DNA from: Ureaplasma sp.
GTDB taxonomy: Bacteria; Bacillota_I; Bacilli_A; Mycoplasmatales; Mycoplasmoidaceae
NCBI GenBank assembly: GCA_050872725.1
Contig: JBNMHK010000001.1
Span: forward strand, 44,850-108,849
Direction: 5' to 3'
Length of the DNA stretch: 64,000 bases
Below, piece by piece: positions 363 through 8,737 of the stretch; position 1 is the stretch's first letter, and each line of letters starts with the position of its first letter. The position numbers and the translations under genes are program-made. The notes beneath the pieces are model-generated. The model was not told the origin of the DNA. It saw nothing but the letters and a program-made list of their open reading frames with translations, and did no database searches.

Positions 363-1115
363 ATGGCTTCTATTCTAGAGACAATTAAAAATACAAAACA
401 ACCTAAAGATGGATTTTTAGCACCGAGTCAATTTAAAGAGATTTTTTTAAATGATGAGCTAGAAATTACTAATGAAGAAAATATTCCTTTAAGTCTTGTA
501 GGAATTGTTATTGACTATATGACAAGATTTTTATTGATTGGTGATGCAAGAAATTGTTTTAGAGTATCATTAGCAGGGGCGATGGCTGTCAATGAATTTG
601 ACAAAGCTAAGGAACTGTTAGACACTATCGATGGATTAAATGACCAATCTATTGTGGCAGCATGTAAATTAGTTGGTTATGACATTTGCTTTAGAGAACA
701 CCCAAGACTATTCAAACCAATTGAAACTATCAACCCAGATGCTCAAACCATTAGTAACATTAAAGCAATGATTATAAGATGTTCATCATTTGCTAAAGAA
801 TTTGGCCCAATCATTAAAGAAGGAATCACATTTGAAGGTGGATACACTGACAAAATTACAGCTGGGGATGGTGACTTTTTAACTGATGGAACAATGTGAG
901 ACATTAAACTGTCAGCTGATGGTATTGACACTAACAATACATTGCAATTATTAATTCACTACATTATGGGTAAACATTCAAATTATCCTGAATTACAAAA
1001 TGTTTATAAAATTGGTTTTTTCAATCCAAGATTGAACAGAATATATTTAATGGATGCTAGTGATATTGATCCTAATGTTATTAGTGAAGTTGAAAAAAGT
1101 GTAATTGGTTACTAA
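363..1115 (+). CDS. Hypothetical protein with PD-(D/E)XK (RecB-like) nuclease motif, 250 aa
   Basis: ORF 363..899 reads through TGA to TAA at 1113-1115. C-terminal half has GDGDFLTDGTMWDIK...LQLLIHY (D...DxK plus QLxxY). Confidence 0.6.
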
Positions 1116-4100
1116 TTAAAATTAAAGAACTTATCAAAATAAGCTTGCAAGTCAATAATGACTTGCTGCTTTTTTTCTATCCTATTCTCAGATTTATTAA
1201 TTGCAAATCTTGACATTGCAGGCAAAAGATCGTCAATTTCAGTGCCATTTGTTTTAAGAAATTTTTGTTGAAAACAACTGTTAACGAAATTGCGTGTTCC
1301 GTCTGGTTTTAAATTGTGTTTTGTGATGATTGCTTCTAATTCAACATTTCTTTGCTCATTAATAAAACTATTAAAGCTATCATAAATTGAATTATCGCTT
1401 TCATCATTTAATGAATTAATAAATGCAATAATTAAATCTTTTTTATTTCTAAATTCATATGATGAATCAAGAATCTTGTTAATTCAAGCTAGATTATCAA
1501 TTTTTTTATCTTTTTTATCTGGGTCAATATATTCATGTATTAATTGAAAAATATATGCTAAATTGACATCAATTTGTTGAACTAATGTTGTTTCAAAAAC
1601 AATGTCTTCTACAACACTAGTCTTTTTTGTATCTGCTTCTGTTTTTAAATCACTGTAATATGTGTTGTATTTTCCTAAGTAATTTGTTAATTCGTCTTCA
1701 CTCAGAATTTGTTGGCTATCATCATAATTGTTAATGAATGATTTAAGTAAATTTAGTTTTTGTAAGATAAGACCGAAGTCATTAATAAATGCTTTTTTAT
1801 GTTCATCAGAATGCAATTCTTTACTTGTGGGAAAATTATGTCTTAAATTTTCTACAACTTGACAATATCCTGGCTGATACACACCTTTTTCATCTGTGTA
1901 GCCATTATAGTAATCATTGTATGCACGTAATGTAACAATATTGCTAGAATGACTGCCACTATAAACCCTAATTGCATCATCAAGTTCTTTTTTTATTGGT
2001 AGAAAACTAACAATATTACCTGATGTTTTAACAGAGTTGAAAATTCTATTAGTTCGTGAAAATGCTTGAATCAAACCATGTAATTTTAGTTTTTTATCTA
2101 CTCATAATGTGTTCAGTATTGGAGCATCAAATCCAGTTAAAAACATATTAACTACAATTAATAAATCAACTTCTTTGTTTTTCATTTTTAATGAAAGATC
2201 ACGATAGTAACCTTGAAACCCTTCATTACTAATGTCTCAACTAGTACCAAACATTTGGTTGTAATCATTAATTGCTTGTTTTAAAAATTCTTTTGATGAT
2301 TGATCTAATGATTCCACAGATTCATTATTTTCATCCTCAATGTAATAATCATCTGTGTCAAAGATAATATCATTTTGGGAAAATGAAAAAATCGTTGCAA
2401 TCTTAAGATCAGGATAAATTTTGTTTTCTTGTTGTCTTTTAAATTCTTGATAATATAACCTAGCATGTTCAATACTTGAGGTTGCTAAAATAGAATTAAA
2501 TCCTTGGATATTTCTTACATCATAGTTGGCATTTAGTTTATTATGTTTGTCTTTTGCTAAATAGATAGCATTAGTAATGCATTTGTGTTTAAATGCACTT
2601 TCACGACAAGTTATCCTGTCAAAGTTTTTAATAATGAATTCAACATTATTAGCAATTCTCTCTGGAGCTAAAAAGATTTCTTTCTTGTCAATTTGACTGA
2701 TTTCTTCATCTTCAACATCATCCTTTATGCTTTTAATGGTTTGGATAGTTGATAAATTAAATGGCAAGACATTATTATCATTGATTGCATCTACAATATT
2801 ATATGTATGCAAACGTTCCCCAAATTGTTGGTCAGTTGTATAACCTGATAAATAGGTTTTGCTAACATCATTGGCAATTGTTTTAGTAGAAATTACTTTA
2901 GAATTTTCAGAAAAAATTGGCGTGCCTGTAAAACCAAATATATTGTGTCTTATAAAATTCTTTTTAATTGATGTATTCATTTCACCAAATTGTGAACGAT
3001 GACATTCATCAAAAATTAAAACAATGTGCTTGTTGTAAACATCACTATTTTTATTATTTTTAATAAAACGGGATAATTTTTGGATTGTTGTAATAATTAT
3101 TTTTTTCTGTGGATCATTAGACTCTAATTGCTTTTGCAAAATTTTTGTTGATGTGTTTGAATTTGCACAGCCTTCTTCAAACTTATCATATTCTTTCATT
3201 GTTTGATAGTCTAAATCTTTTCTATCAACAACAAAAATCACCTTATCAATATAGTCTAATTTCGATGCAATTTGAGCAGTTTTGAATGAAGTTATTGTTT
3301 TACCACTACCAGTAGTATGCCAAATATAACCACCTGCTTGAACTGTGCCTAATACCTTGTTATCATTGTGAGAGTACAGAATCTTATTTATAATTCTTTC
3401 AGTGGCAACGATTTGGTATGGACGCATCACCAATAGTTCATTTGTGCTAGTGAAGATACAATATTTTGTCAAAATGTTTAAAATTGTATGTTTAGAAAAG
3501 AATGTTTCTGTAAAATCAAAAAGATTGTCAATCTTTTGATTTTTAGCATCAGCTCAATACATTGTAAATTTGTAACTATTTTTGGATTTAGATTCTTGTG
3601 TTTTCCCATTTTGTTCAATAAAACGTTTAGTATTGGCAAAGTATTTTGTTTGGTTAATATTAGACATAACAAAAATTTGCACATAATTAAATAAACCATG
3701 AGACGAGCTAAATGAATCATCACGATAGCGTAATAATTGGTTAAATGCTTCTTCAAGTTTAACTGCCGGTCGTTTTAATTCAATACTTATAATTGGTAAG
3801 CCATTGATTAAAATTGTTACATCATAACGATTATGATTTTCATGTTTACTAACATATTGATTGATGACTTGAAGTTTGTTTGCATGTAAGTTATCATCTT
3901 TTTTAATTAGGTAAACATTAAAAATGTCACCATTATCACGTCTCAATTCATAAATATAATTTGTCTGGAATTTCTTAGTTTTTTCTGTAATGCCATCATT
4001 GCTTTTGGCAATGAAATCATTAAATAATAAATTTCATTCAGGGTCGCTGAATTTAGTTTTATTAAGGCTTTCTAATTGTAATCTTAGGTTTTCAATTAGA

Positions 4101-4294
4101 AAATCTTCATGGTTAGTGTTACTAGGTAATTTTAAATATTCATAACCTTGTGCTTCTAATTGATTAATAAATTTTTGCTCTAATTCTTTTTCGCTTAGAG
4201 AATTAAAATTGTTATGATTTCTTTTCTTGAATTCTTCTATAACTGTTGGTTCATCGGATAATATTAAATTAGAAAAAGTTGATTTGTTATTCAT
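1112..4294 (-). CDS. hsdR: Type I restriction enzyme subunit R, 1060 aa
   Basis: Four track ORFs share one frame, joined by TGA=Trp. Motifs [51 protein letters not shown]; TAG at 1112-1114. Confidence 0.95.
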
Positions 4295-6500
4295 TGTTCT
4301 TCACTTTAAATGTTAATAATTTGTTGCTATAGTACTGGTATTGTTTATGACGTAATTCAATTTCTTTGCGAATGCCCTCATCTACCAAACTACTAAATTT
4401 GTCCAAAACTTGGACAATTTTTTCTTGAATTTCTAGAGGTGGGATGGGGATGGAAATTTCTAAAATTTTGCTCATGTCTGGGGTTTTAAATGGAACGCCT
4501 CTACCTCGATAAAAACTCTTAATCAAACTAATATTATTTCTTAAAAAATAATATATGTATTTTGTGTTGTACACACTACTATCACGTGTTGTACAAATCA
4601 AGTCTCCTGAATTAACGAATTTGCCATTTCAATATTCAATTTCTAGTGATTCACTTGTTAATGATGGTTGTAATGTAATAATTTCGCCTTCTGATAAATT
4701 TTCGCCTGCTAGTATTTCATTAGTTCAACCCTCAAAATTATTTGCAGATAACAATTTAACATTACCTGTTTTTAAATTTATATCTTTAAGCGTATTAGAT
4801 GAAATGGATTTAAATTTATTAAGTTTATCTTGTTTACTTTTATCTGTATTTTGAAATTTTTTATTTCAAATAGTTATTTTTCATAGTGGTAATCATTCAA
4901 CATCTTTGCCTTCAAAATCAAAAAGCTTATCAAGACAAAACTCATTAATTTGCTTATCTTCTAATTCATTAATTATTTCCCTAATTGCTTGTTTTGATTC
5001 TTGGTTTATCTTGGATAATTGATTAATTTCTTCATTTAATTGTTTTATATCAACTACTTCTTTTTCATCATTTTTTAAAATATATGAATCCACATGTAAG
5101 TCATAGTCATTGCTTGCAATTTTATCTTGGCTAACTAATCTAGATAACTTATCAACATCTTTTCTATCGTTATAAAGTTTGATGATTTCATCAATGTTTT
5201 CATCACTTAATTTTTTTTGATTAGTAACTTTAATAAACAAATCACTTGCATCAATAAATAATATGTCATTATCTTTTTTAGATTTTGATAATACTAGGAT
5301 ATTAGTAATTACTTGTTTACCATAAAATAAATTTTCTGGTAACCGAATTATTGTGTCAATAAAATTATTGTCTACCAAATATTTTCTAATTTTTTGTTCA
5401 GCGCCACCGCGATAAAAAATTCCTGGAAAACAAACAATTCCAGCTGTCCCAGACGTTTTTAATAAATATAAACTATGCATAATAACTGCAAGATCAGAAT
5501 TGCTTTTAGGTGCTAATATTCCTGCAGGACTATAACGTTCATCATTGATTAAAATTGGATTGCTATCACCTTCTCAGTCTTGATGATAAGGCGGATTAGA
5601 AACAATAATGTCATAGCGATTATCTAATGAATGTTTTGGGTTAGTTAGTGTATCACCACATTGAATGTCAAAATTACTACAATTAACATTATGTAAAAAC
5701 ATGTTCATGCGGCATAAATTGTATGTTGTATAAACATTTTCTTGCCCATAAAAATTGATGTTAGAATTTTTTAAAATTTTTAGTGGTTGTAATAATAGTG
5801 AACCTGACCTACACATTGGGTCATATACAGTTTGAATATCTTTCTTATCTTTAATAGCTAGTAAAGTTAGTAATTTACTAACCTCTTGTGGAGGATCAAA
5901 GAACTCTCTGTTTCGCTTACCTGATTTAGATGCATACATGTCAATAATGTATTCATATGCATCACCAAATATATCAATCTCGTCATCATCAAAATTACTA
6001 AGCTCAAAGCTAGCAATTGCAGCAATAATCTTAATTATTTTTTTATTTCTATTAGTGACATTTTCACCTAAATTATTTGATGACAAATTAATTCCAGTTA
6101 ATAAACCTATGATGTCTTGTTCATTTGCTTTGTTTAATGAACGTTCCTCAATATTTTTAAAAATATTAGTAATAACAACATTTAGGTCACTGGGGTTGGT
6201 TTTATATTTTTCATATACATTATTAAATAATTCTGATGGATAAATAAAGAAACCTTTAGAGTTAATACAATCTGAAATTATTTCATCTGAAATTTCATCA
6301 TCATTAAGTTTGGCATAATCAAAATCAACATTACCAGCAGCATGTTCATTTTTATTGAAATAATTAATAATATTTTCAGAAATATAGCGATAAAACAGAA
6401 ATCCTAGGACATAGAATTTCAACTCTGAAATGTCAACTGATCCTAATGATTTATTAAGAGTTTCTCAAATTTGACTAAATAATTCTTGTTTAGTTTTCAT
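4287..6500 (-). CDS. Fused type I methyltransferase HsdM plus single-TRD HsdS, 737 aa
   Basis: ATG 6500 to TAA 4287 in one frame with no TAA/TAG. HsdM motifs (YVLGFLFYRYISE, DPMCRSGSLL, NPPY) continue into an HsdS start (VEWLPLWKITIWNKKF) and one conserved helix (IPIPPLEIQEKIV...YQYYSNKLLTF). Confidence 0.85.
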
Positions 6501-6571
6501 AGCAAAAATACACAAATACTATTTTAACTAAATATTATTTGTTTTGTTTAAGCTAAAACTTTATACATTTA

Positions 6572-8737
6572 TTAAATAAGTTGAGCTTTTTTCTTTTTGA
6601 TTATTTCAACAACAATATCTCTATATTTTTTAATGAATTCCTCATTAATATTTTCCATAAAATAAGTTTTTGGAATTCGCTTTATACGTTCTGCATAATC
6701 TGATTTGATTTTATTTTCAATTATTGAATTGTAAATTGTATCAATCAGCTCATTATCATCCATAAATTCATTAATAAAGATAGCTATTTTTTGTTTTAAA
6801 TTATCATATTTTTTGTTTATTACTGCATCAATTAAATTCTTGTAATTTTTATTTTTACGATATGAACAATTGTTAATTAAATTCATTTGATCTTGATTAT
6901 ATTCGTTTAAATGAAATAAAACATCCTCAATGGTTTTGAATTCGTTACCAACATTAAATAATTGATTATAAGTTAGATAATTTATTTTGTTTTTGTCTAA
7001 CTTGTTCTCACTAATAAATTGGTCATTGTCACATATGACTAAAAAATGAAATTTATTTGTTTGTTCATGTAAAAATTTTAAGCTATTTAAAAAATTATGG
7101 TTAAATTTAAAATCATTTTTAACAATGAATTTGTCATCATTGTTGCCTCCAATAATTCTTTTTATTAAATTTTTATCAGTATTGGCTTCAACAAAAATAT
7201 GGTATTGTAAATCACTTAGTTTCTTTATTCCATAATGGATATTATATTTTTCTAATTCTCTATACTTATCTAATAAATTATTTTCTGAATTAAATTTTTT
7301 GTTAGTTACTAAATAAATTAATTTTGGAGTTGGATTATTAAAATCAGTAGTAGATATTCTTCCTACTGCTTGATATAATTTCTCAGGTGAATATTCATCA
7401 CATATATAAATTCCTAAATCTGCTTTATCTAAGGTTATACCAATAGCAGTGTCTTTTTGTAAAACTATTACATTAAGATCTTCATTTTGAAATTCATTAA
7501 TAATTTTTTGTCTTTCTTTTGAATTGACATTAGCATTTATATGTTTTGCATTAATACCATATTGTTTAAAATCATTAATAATATTGGTTTGAGCCTCTTT
7601 AAAATAACAAAAAACAACAATTTTTTTATCTTTATTTTTATTGATTAACTCAATTGCTTTTTCAATTTTTTTAGGCAAAAATAAATTATTATTTATAGGA
7701 TCATTTGTTATTCTAGGATCGTCAGATCATTTTTGTTTTTCTATAAAATTACGTTCCGACCTAATTTTCTTTTGTATATTTGGATATTCCTCAATTTCTA
7801 TTTCATCAATGTATAAGTAATTTAAAGGGTTATATTTATGACAATCATCAGGTCTGTATAAAAATTCATCTAACACTTTCCTTATAACATTAGGACGATT
7901 AATTTTATCTTCCGAACCATATTTTAATTGAATATGTTTGACGTCTGATTTATTTTTCCAATGTCTTTCAATAAATTCTTTGTCTAATAACTGAATAGCC
8001 TTAAAAATATCTAAAATTTTATGATTAACTGGTGTTGCAGATAATAAAATGAATAAATCAATATTAGTAAAATATTTCTTAATGATATCTTTAATTGATT
8101 TATGACGTTTATCACCAGTTTTTATAAAATTATGGAATTCATCAATAATAATATTTTTAAATAATTTAAATTTTTTAAATACTTCTGAATTATCTTTTTC
8201 TGATGAGAATCTTTTGGCAAATGTTTCTTCCGTAGTAATGATTATTTTGTAATCATTACTATTATCATTAATCTTGTCAAAAATATCATCATTCTTCTTA
8301 CTATGATAAATATAAACATTTTTTTCATTGTGATCTTTAAATGTTTTTTCAAATGTTTCAATCATATTTTTATCAACAAATAAAATAGTGTTTGCTTTAT
8401 TATTTAATATTGCTGTTATTGAAATATATGTTTTACCAAATCTAACCGGTAAAAATAAGCAAACTTTTCTATTTTTTAAAATATGGTTTAAACTATCTTT
8501 TTGATAATCATGTAATTTGTAGTATTCAATATTTTTATCATCAAAATTTTTATTTAAATATGAATTTTCACTAAATATTTCTAATAATTTAACTCTATTC
8601 TCATTTGTTAGAAAGAAGTATATGTGCTTATAATCTGGTGTTTCATAATAAAAATCTTCATCAAAATCAGATAGATTTATATTTTTGTATTCATCTGAAT
8701 TGATGTCAATTTTTTTTATGTATTTCCCATTGAGCAT
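6572..8737 (-). CDS. SF2 (SNF2/DExH-like) helicase with C-terminal OLD-like TOPRIM domain, 721 aa
   Basis: Two track ORFs joined through TGA 7727-7729. Helicase motifs LHDYQ, PVRFGKT, IIIDEFH, LSATP, KIVVFC, AIGITL, QAVGRI; then IFVEANTD, VICDND, TIEDV. Confidence 0.75.

Follow-up and report, generated by a model that had tools for sequence, protein, structure and literature searches.

Within the window, by which we mean the whole 64,000-nucleotide stretch of Ureaplasma sp. DNA that was analysed, the minus strand carries a single gene joining an altered hsdM to half of an hsdS, and this gene runs directly into hsdR. The features of the locus are as follows.

1112..4294 (-), hsdR of type IC, 1060 aa (Pfam HSDR_N, SWI2_SNF2, T1R_D3-like and EcoR124_C)
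4287..4294 (-), stop/start overlap of 8 nt, ATGAATAA, in which the fused gene ends AAT GAA TAA and hsdR begins ATG AAT AAC
4287..6500 (-), fused gene (altered hsdM with half-hsdS), 737 codons from ATG at 6500, with an in-frame TTG at 6515
4317..4436 (-), single conserved coiled-coil helix, the HsdS C-terminal conserved region (C-terminal part of Pfam Methylase_S; AF2 helix 689-728)
4443..4898 (-), single target recognition domain (TRD), aligning with EcoR124II HsdS (beta-rich fold 535-686 in the AF2 model)
4881..4961 (-), fusion junction, comprising the HsdM end ELEDKQ, the HsdS N-terminal stub INEFC and the TRD start LDKLFDFEGKDVEW (DNA comparison with hsdM/hsdS of L005)
4962..5048 (-), HsdM C-terminal helix, which packs on HsdS helices (AF2 helix 485-513 in P0004 numbering; part of the predicted dimer interface)
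5010..6488 (-), HsdM part of type IC, residues 10-502, HsdM_N and gamma-class N6_Mtase (TIGR00497)
5586..5597 (-), motif IV NPPY, residues 307-310, retained (homolog alignment)
5799..5822 (-), altered motif I, DPMCRSGS against DPxCGSGS in the family (homolog alignment)
5886..5921 (-), altered motif X, GKRNREFFDPPQ against GKSGGEFFT-PQ in the family (homolog alignment)
6501..6531 (-), 31-nt leader common to the fused gene and, in relatives, unfused hsdM; 100% identical upstream of both in L005 and L024

Reading frame and domain architecture

Read with table 11, minus-strand positions 4287-6515 give three open reading frames, whereas table 4 gives a single one, 4287..6515, of 742 codons from TTG with seven in-frame TGA codons. 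The use of genetic code 4, in which TGA specifies tryptophan, is justified since the genome carries tRNA-Trp(UCA) beside tRNA-Trp(CCA) and since two of the seven TGA codons (W17 and W314) fall on tryptophan columns that are invariant in HsdM homologs, and the three fragments of the table 11 reading were dropped on these grounds; the GC content of the window is about 27%. The ATG at 6500 is the likely start codon and the product accordingly 737 aa long, since every homolog begins MKTKQ, which sets the limits of the gene at 4287-6500.

Residues 10-502 match the hsdM family TIGR00497 with 554 bits against a cut-off of 243 (E=3e-166) and EcoR124II HsdM (7bst_D) with E=4e-147, and this part of the protein thus has the combination of HsdM_N and gamma-class N6-adenine methylase that characterises type IC. 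The Pfam domain set of the fused protein is limited to HsdM_N (15-166), N6_Mtase (179-486) and one Methylase_S match (629-720) corresponding to the C-terminal half of the model, and the nuclease or motor that marks the methylase-TRD chain of Type ISP and Type IIG enzymes is absent from it. The C-terminal 223 aa align with residues 7-198 of EcoR124II HsdS, the HsdS N-terminus included, while the conserved coiled-coil helix matches residues 308-397 of the same protein (E=4e-25 for the HsdS helix), and as judged from these alignments the C-terminal 223 aa are an HsdS N-terminal stub followed by a single TRD and a single conserved helix. The AF2 model, with a mean pLDDT of 82.6, likewise shows the HsdM C-terminal helix, a single beta-rich TRD and a single long terminal helix. 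The TRD is 38-48% identical to those of ordinary HsdS proteins, and at most 48% identical to TRDs of uncharacterised specificity. The chain therefore has the one TRD and one coiled-coil helix of a half-HsdS, but the separate HsdS with two TRDs and two conserved helices typical of type IC is missing, no separate hsdS having been found among the open reading frames and domains of the locus.

The partner HsdR matches 2w00_A with E=3e-128 and has the PD-(D/E)xK nuclease, SF2 motor and EcoR124_C domain of type IC. Its D...ExK, GSGKT (Walker A) and DECH motifs are conserved, and the nuclease and motor motifs are by this measure intact. The 8-nt overlap recurs in every close relative with hsdR on the contig, and in relatives with enough contig the position of the fused gene on the chromosome is constant, with a defence island on one side and obg-nadE-pheS on the other. 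Genes for GmrSD, which acts on modified DNA, adjoin the module. The genome has a second type I system on contig C2, which belongs to a different family with 27% HsdM identity.

A sequence-only reading of this DNA had described HsdM as continuing without a stop into a specificity module with one TRD and one helix, and this description is borne out by the single 737-codon gene under code 4, located exactly where it had been placed, and by the EcoR124II HsdS alignment and the AF2 model; the peptide quoted in that reading, ...INELEDKQINEFCLDKLFDFEGKDVEWLPLWKITIW..., is found in the translation. The junction, previously given as 4880-4960, was placed at about 4881-4961, the proposed overlap of the stop with the hsdR start is the one at 4287-4294, and the separate HsdR suggested as partner is intact and translationally coupled.

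Relatives and descent of the fused gene

In L005 and L024 a classical hsdM (517 aa) and a two-TRD hsdS (394-396 aa) lie directly upstream of the fused gene and make it possible to follow its construction. The hsdM of the classical pair ends GAT GAG CAA AAT TAA and is overlapped by 14 nt in the +1 frame by the hsdS start, ATG AGC AAA ATT AAT..., whereas the fused genes read GAT (G/A)AG CAA ATT AAT... with an A4 run that is short of one A, and it is the loss of this A in the overlap that joins the two frames. A second join, between NEFC and LDKLFDF, falls in the short direct repeat ATGAGTTTT[G/A]TC, with one copy at hsdS codons 9-13 and the other where the central conserved region ends. Loss of an A from the A4 run of the 14-nt overlap brought hsdS into the hsdM frame, whereupon a deletion between the two ATGAGTTTT[G/A]TC copies removed TRD1 and the central helix. 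The comparison at the DNA level shows in this manner that the fused gene descends from a classical overlapping hsdM/hsdS pair by way of two small lesions. The half-S is furthermore close to TRD2 and the C-terminal helix of the adjoining full HsdS in L005 and L024 (dN 0.07-0.09). The central helix of the full HsdS of the relatives contains a repeat, TEME x4, that we take to resemble the TAEL repeat of EcoR124I. A comparable first step has been made by hand in EcoKI, where hsdM and hsdS were fused by a single-adenine change in the overlap (PMC3510504).

The fused protein is identical to the database protein P0004, and its architecture recurs at 83-95% identity in seven more database entries (737-748 aa) that stem from various samples and pipelines, the fusion being carried by eight independent assemblies. 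Where the fused proteins have a database name at all, it is only 'type I restriction enzyme M protein'. Calculated with code 4, the M part has dN/dS values of 0.20-0.46, the S part lies mostly at 0.2-0.6 with one pair at 0.80, and hsdR, which was measured in six relatives and is open and constrained in all of them, lies mostly at 0.12-0.21. About 4.4% of single-base changes in the fused gene would create a stop, and for the pair formed by the window and L017 roughly 18 stops are expected under neutral drift at the observed dS; none of the eight copies contains a stop or frameshift, although dS reaches 0.28. On this comparative evidence the fused gene is under purifying selection and not an artefact, and a pseudogene was likewise ruled out because the eight assemblies agree, because of the dN/dS values and because the frames are free of stops. 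A spurious 1-nt deletion, introduced in sequencing or assembly and joining what are really separate hsdM and hsdS genes, might be suspected because the two frames are joined by a change of 1 nt within a short run of A, a kind of site at which indel errors arise. The same junction is however present in the eight assemblies regardless of sample and pipeline, the deletion of TRD1 is a second and independent lesion, and analogous fusions exist in distant lineages, so that this explanation is barely credible.

The search for full-length fused homologs that the sequence-only reading had called for thus returned the seven close ones, and it returned more distant ones as well. Some of the distant fused proteins are 44-46% identical at 99% coverage, and an exhaustive search gave many representatives of fused length (685-793 aa). 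Of ten distant proteins of fused length that were tested, seven have HsdM_N, N6_Mtase and one Methylase_S domain, and in each of the four distant loci inspected the fused gene lies beside hsdR without a separate hsdS. Most of the distant fused proteins keep canonical catalytic motifs. From these matches, M-half-S fusions appear to be widespread and to occur in several distant lineages.

Among the close relatives the locus exists in three states, namely hsdM-hsdS-fused gene-hsdR (state A; L005 and L024), fused gene-hsdR (state B; the window, L017 and L018) and a pocket-intact chimera followed by hsdR (state C; L008). The fused-length protein P0006 is a clean recombinant: as far as about alignment column 330 it does not differ from the unfused HsdM P0125, and from about column 351 onward it does not differ from the fused P0387 (100% identity in both stretches). 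The sequence preceding the fused gene in state B corresponds to that preceding unfused hsdM in state A, and this match, together with the identical leader, indicates that state B arose by deletion between duplicated 5' ends. The loss of catalysis probably dates from a time when an intact hsdM-hsdS pair was located immediately upstream, as it still is in L005 and L024, and the genome of the window would later have lost the upstream pair by recombination between the duplicated 5' ends.

The AdoMet pocket and the predicted dimer

An alignment of 237 homologs, 230 of them outside the window clade, contains 51 columns that are at least 93% conserved in those 230, and the window protein deviates at five of these (G203R, T207D, G236R, S311H and F344V), all of which lie in or beside motifs X, I and IV and the DFAF motif. 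The columns of G203, T207 and G236 are 96-99% invariant across the 230 homologs; counted over all 237 aligned sequences, G is found at 203 in 221, T at 207 in 227 and G at 236 in 230. Motif X reads RNREFFDPPQ against GGEFFTPQ, and the proline inserted adjacent to T207D occurs only in the window clade; the motif X loop has a pLDDT below 50 and is the least confident part of the AF2 model. In motif I, R236 aligns with G177 of EcoKI, where the G177D mutation affected cofactor binding (PMC2647291). The canonical forms of motif I (DPxxGxG) and motif X (GxFFTP) are thus absent, their places being taken by DPMCRSGS and REFFDPP. The catalytic motif IV, NPP(Y/F), is present as NPPY, but the residue that follows it is H where 93% of the family has S (S311H), and F344V is within the DFAF motif. 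The adenine-stacking phenylalanine (EcoKI F345) is retained as F397. Four clade mates (P0005, P0009, P0010 and P0387) have SPPY instead of NPPY (N307S), whereas the unfused paralogs P0125 and P0127 and the recombinant P0006 keep both the pocket and the catalytic residues. The altered HsdM part is 55% identical to outgroup HsdMs against 57-60% for the paralogs, and overall dN/dS is about 0.25 for the former against 0.31 for the intact paralog.

The window copy is unlikely to be a working methyltransferase, the doubt stemming from the altered motif X and from the correspondence of R236 in motif I to EcoKI G177. The working, methylating M-half-S system of the sequence-only reading is therefore in poor agreement with a pocket that is altered at nearly invariant positions, and a symmetric m6A motif is not expected for the window genome, but would be predicted for the pocket-intact allele of L008 and for the distant fused systems.

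The quaternary part of that reading, a homodimer formed through the helices, fares better as a prediction. Modelling two copies of residues 475-737 gave a dimer score of 0.71 against 0.00 for the best of three controls, although the predictor may already have met the solved HsdS and M2S1 structures, so that the score indicates resemblance to these. Of 30 proteins whose solved structures are pairs 20 attain this mark, as does 1 of 23 whose solved structures are single chains. The runs share at least 81% of contacts, and the partner pLDDT is at least 81. In the modelled interface the helix 695-734 lies antiparallel with itself and the HsdM helix 489-513 is packed against the pair, which is the four-helix-bundle geometry of M2S1. 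The single HsdS helix of each chain would accordingly pair with that of the other, and the HsdM C-terminal helices of both chains would complete the four-helix bundle. The dimer would thereby restore an M2S1-like core in which the TRD is present twice in identical form; this core would recognise a symmetric bipartite site and dock the separately encoded and intact HsdR motor-nuclease. This model supports homodimerisation, and so does the behaviour of an engineered Staphylococcus aureus M-half-S fusion (PMC6158711), which formed dimers, had methylating activity on a palindromic site and carried out restriction together with HsdR.

Function of the module and relation to known systems

The fused protein is probably a non-methylating recognition and assembly scaffold for HsdR, and the fuller reading, in which a single chain of altered HsdM and half-HsdS forms a paired half-S core whose HsdM bodies serve HsdR as a non-methylating scaffold, is in our judgement on balance probable, though only just. 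The notion of a non-catalytic HsdM scaffold stems from the observations that the structure is conserved while the pocket residues are eroding, and that an intact paralog lies upstream in the older state of the locus. The charged residues would rebuild the AdoMet pocket such that the HsdM part methylates poorly or not at all, and this part would be kept for structural roles in clamping DNA and in bridging the half-S dimer to HsdR. It should also be mentioned that a constraint on the altered HsdM similar to that on the intact paralog fits retained activity as well, and that the selection measured may in large part go back to the four-gene state.

Retained activity would make the locus a working two-gene type I restriction-modification system, in which (M-half-S)2 binds AdoMet despite the substitutions, methylates a palindromic bipartite site and restricts together with HsdR. 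This would be consistent with the retained NPPY and stacking Phe, with purifying selection on the M domain, with an intact and translationally coupled hsdR and with a host that is viable without another matching TRD; furthermore, the engineered equivalent functions (PMC6158711), and distant fused systems with canonical motifs adjoin hsdR without a separate hsdS. Three AdoMet-motif residues that are 96-99% invariant have however been replaced by Arg, Asp and Arg, with a Pro inserted, the EcoKI substitution equivalent to one of them affected cofactor binding (PMC2647291), and sister alleles in addition lose the Asn of NPPY, which is the pattern to be expected when catalysis is no longer selected, and on this balance we hold a working system to be rather unlikely, if worth keeping in mind. 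The opposite view, that the fused gene and hsdR became useless after loss of the intact hsdM-hsdS and are an inert remnant too young to have acquired stops, agrees with the degenerate pocket, with the mosaic and recombination-prone nature of the island, with an origin of the two-gene state by deletion that may be recent in each lineage, and with the slow decay seen in reduced genomes. It is difficult to reconcile with eight copies free of stops and frameshifts where roughly 18 stops are expected for the window and L017, with an hsdR that is open and constrained in the six relatives measured, and with the fact that L005 and L024 have kept the altered copy although an intact paralog adjoins it, which implies that the altered copy has a separate function, and an inert remnant consequently seems improbable.

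If the scaffold reading is followed, an active HsdR on a non-methylating core should attack host sites, and the question of self-protection arises. Comparison by blastp of the half-S with the S proteins of the C2 and C15 loci, in a genome that is 89% complete, found no protecting methylase with a matching TRD. Neither was a palindromic bipartite motif cleanly missing among those with 3- or 4-nt half-sites and 4-9-nt spacers, in a scan that is weak in being blind to GC-rich sites, for which expected counts are near zero; the strongest deficits concern TAG-containing words, which are possibly depleted for unrelated reasons. EcoR124I is reported to have no strict need of AdoMet for cleavage, and a methylation-free restriction complex is therefore conceivable, provided that the host is without the site. 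Carried to its end, this would make the module a methylation-independent type I restriction device in which a dead HsdM and a half-HsdS only aim and dock HsdR and self-protection does not come from methylation, a suggestion to which we would attach little weight. Protection might then result from absence of the target, possibly a GC-rich palindrome, from a 0.6-Mb genome with 27% GC, or alternatively the rebuilt pocket might recognise a modified base, which would confine attack to modified foreign DNA, and the latter option would fit the neighbouring GmrSD since this acts on modified DNA.

The closest likeness to the window protein is the engineered 'M1/2Sfus' of S. aureus CC398-1 (Bower et al. 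2018, PMC6158711), which has the same order of a whole HsdM, one TRD and one helix with HsdR separate, and which dimerises and has a palindromic bipartite target. It is however a laboratory construct, with TRD1 and the central helix as its S portion, and has catalytic activity, whereas the window protein is natural, uses TRD2 and the C-terminal helix and has an altered AdoMet pocket. In the EcoKI 'MSFusion', for which the name 'Type IMS' was proposed (Roberts et al. 2012, PMC3510504), the overlap frameshift was removed just as by the natural loss of an A in the window lineage, but this type IA protein retains HsdS whole, with both TRDs, and for activity in vitro it was supplemented with additional free HsdM; the window protein is a type IC half-S, and it is because of the half-S, in place of a full HsdS, that its stoichiometry closes as a homodimer. 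EcoR124I/EcoR124II (type IC; PDB 7BST, 2W00) are matched by the window proteins in HsdM, HsdR and the HsdS helix, yet the subunits of EcoR124I are separate and three in number, it possesses two TRDs, its target is asymmetric and its AdoMet motifs are canonical. The natural half-HsdS NgoAV and the truncated EcoDXXI and EcoR124I have one TRD and one helix and form dimers that read a palindromic bipartite site (PMC10030836), but these are separate polypeptides working with a free, active HsdM, unlike the fusion in the window. Type ISP (LlaGI) and Type IIG/IIB enzymes do combine a gamma-class methylase and a single HsdS-like TRD in one chain, as in the window; that chain however also holds the nuclease, and in Type ISP the motor too, both of which are found in the separate HsdR here.

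M-S and M-half-S fusions have been proposed by Dryden and colleagues as evolutionary intermediates between type I, ISP and IIG, and the same group constructed them in the laboratory (PMC3510504, PMC6158711). In the literature consulted, which consisted mostly of open papers with REBASE outside its scope, we found engineered fusions and separate half-S proteins only, and neither a natural M-half-S fusion nor a methylation-dead type I system. The parts, the mechanism and an engineered version of the exact architecture are already known, and what is new is the natural occurrence with its molecular origin, the breadth across lineages and the subclade with a rebuilt pocket next to an intact HsdR. 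The locus and its relatives provide natural examples of M-half-S proteins together with the exact lesions that made them, and the three locus states within one species cluster offer a ready comparison for the roles of the HsdM body beyond methyl transfer, and lend themselves to asking if a type I motor-nuclease can be retained when it has no methylase of its own.

Island mosaicism and the fusion junction

Two relatives (loci L005 and L024) carry a four-gene arrangement, hsdM-hsdS-M*half-S-hsdR, in which hsdS and the fused gene are separated by 714 nt; this spacer contains a 3'-end remnant of a helicase gene with approximately 81% identity to the window copy, which belongs to an intact gene at 6572-8737.

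L005:6757-6942 and the L024 equivalent: helicase 3'-end remnant; counterpart in the window at 6572-6901

The island is a recombination mosaic. The fusion junction itself (window 4881-4961; junctions of L005, L016 and L018) shows a 12-nt indel polymorphism flanked by two ATTAATGA repeats, the codons for I-N/D-D-x being found in L005, L016 and L018 but missing from the window and from L008, L017 and L019.

The full-length HsdS proteins of the four-gene loci carry a fourfold TEME tandem repeat, which sits in the central conserved helix.

L005:5096-6286: full-length HsdS with TEME x4
L024:6103-7287: full-length HsdS with TEME x4

This repeat looks similar to the TAEL repeat, which determines the length of the spacer in EcoR124I and EcoR124/3, and a change in TEME repeat number could by analogy alter the specificity of HsdS.

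Other modification systems of the genome

The genome of the window (G000) harbors two further sets of genes on other contigs.

C2:73223-81092: a further type I system, complete and from a different family than the fused locus (loci L001, L003, L010, L015)
C15:3003-5691: gamma-class methylase gene followed by an S protein gene (loci L002, L011, L012)

The former comprises an hsdR of 1044 aa, an hsdM of 515 aa with canonical motifs, and a 262-aa tyrosine recombinase between two oppositely oriented hsdS genes, which is how phase-variable systems with invertible hsdS genes are laid out. The C15 methylase (564 aa; motifs DLACGSG and NPPY) is extended at the N-terminus, where a D...EDK nuclease-like motif may be present, and the S protein following it (336 aa) has two TRDs; no match to hsdR was found on contig C15, and the pair may constitute a BcgI-like (type IIB) system.

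Distant fused forms

L007:9165-12192 and L021:8165-11192: split hsdR beside a motif-intact fused gene, distant code-11 lineage
L022:3213-3536: DUF4357 gene (107 aa) separating hsdR from a distant fused M-half-S gene

The split hsdR consists of two ORFs (456 aa and 501 aa) with an identical break point in two independent assemblies, and the break could reflect either a shared frameshift or a truly split HsdR. In L022 the hsdR that partners the fused gene is intact and lies beyond the intervening DUF4357 gene. Finally, two fused-length HsdM-like proteins from unrelated clusters, representatives from an exhaustive homolog search, have degenerate motifs (P0258/P0268: DPACKSGS and NPPH; GGEF lost and NPPY absent), and because these too are degenerate, loss of the catalytic pocket may be recurrent in fused-length forms.
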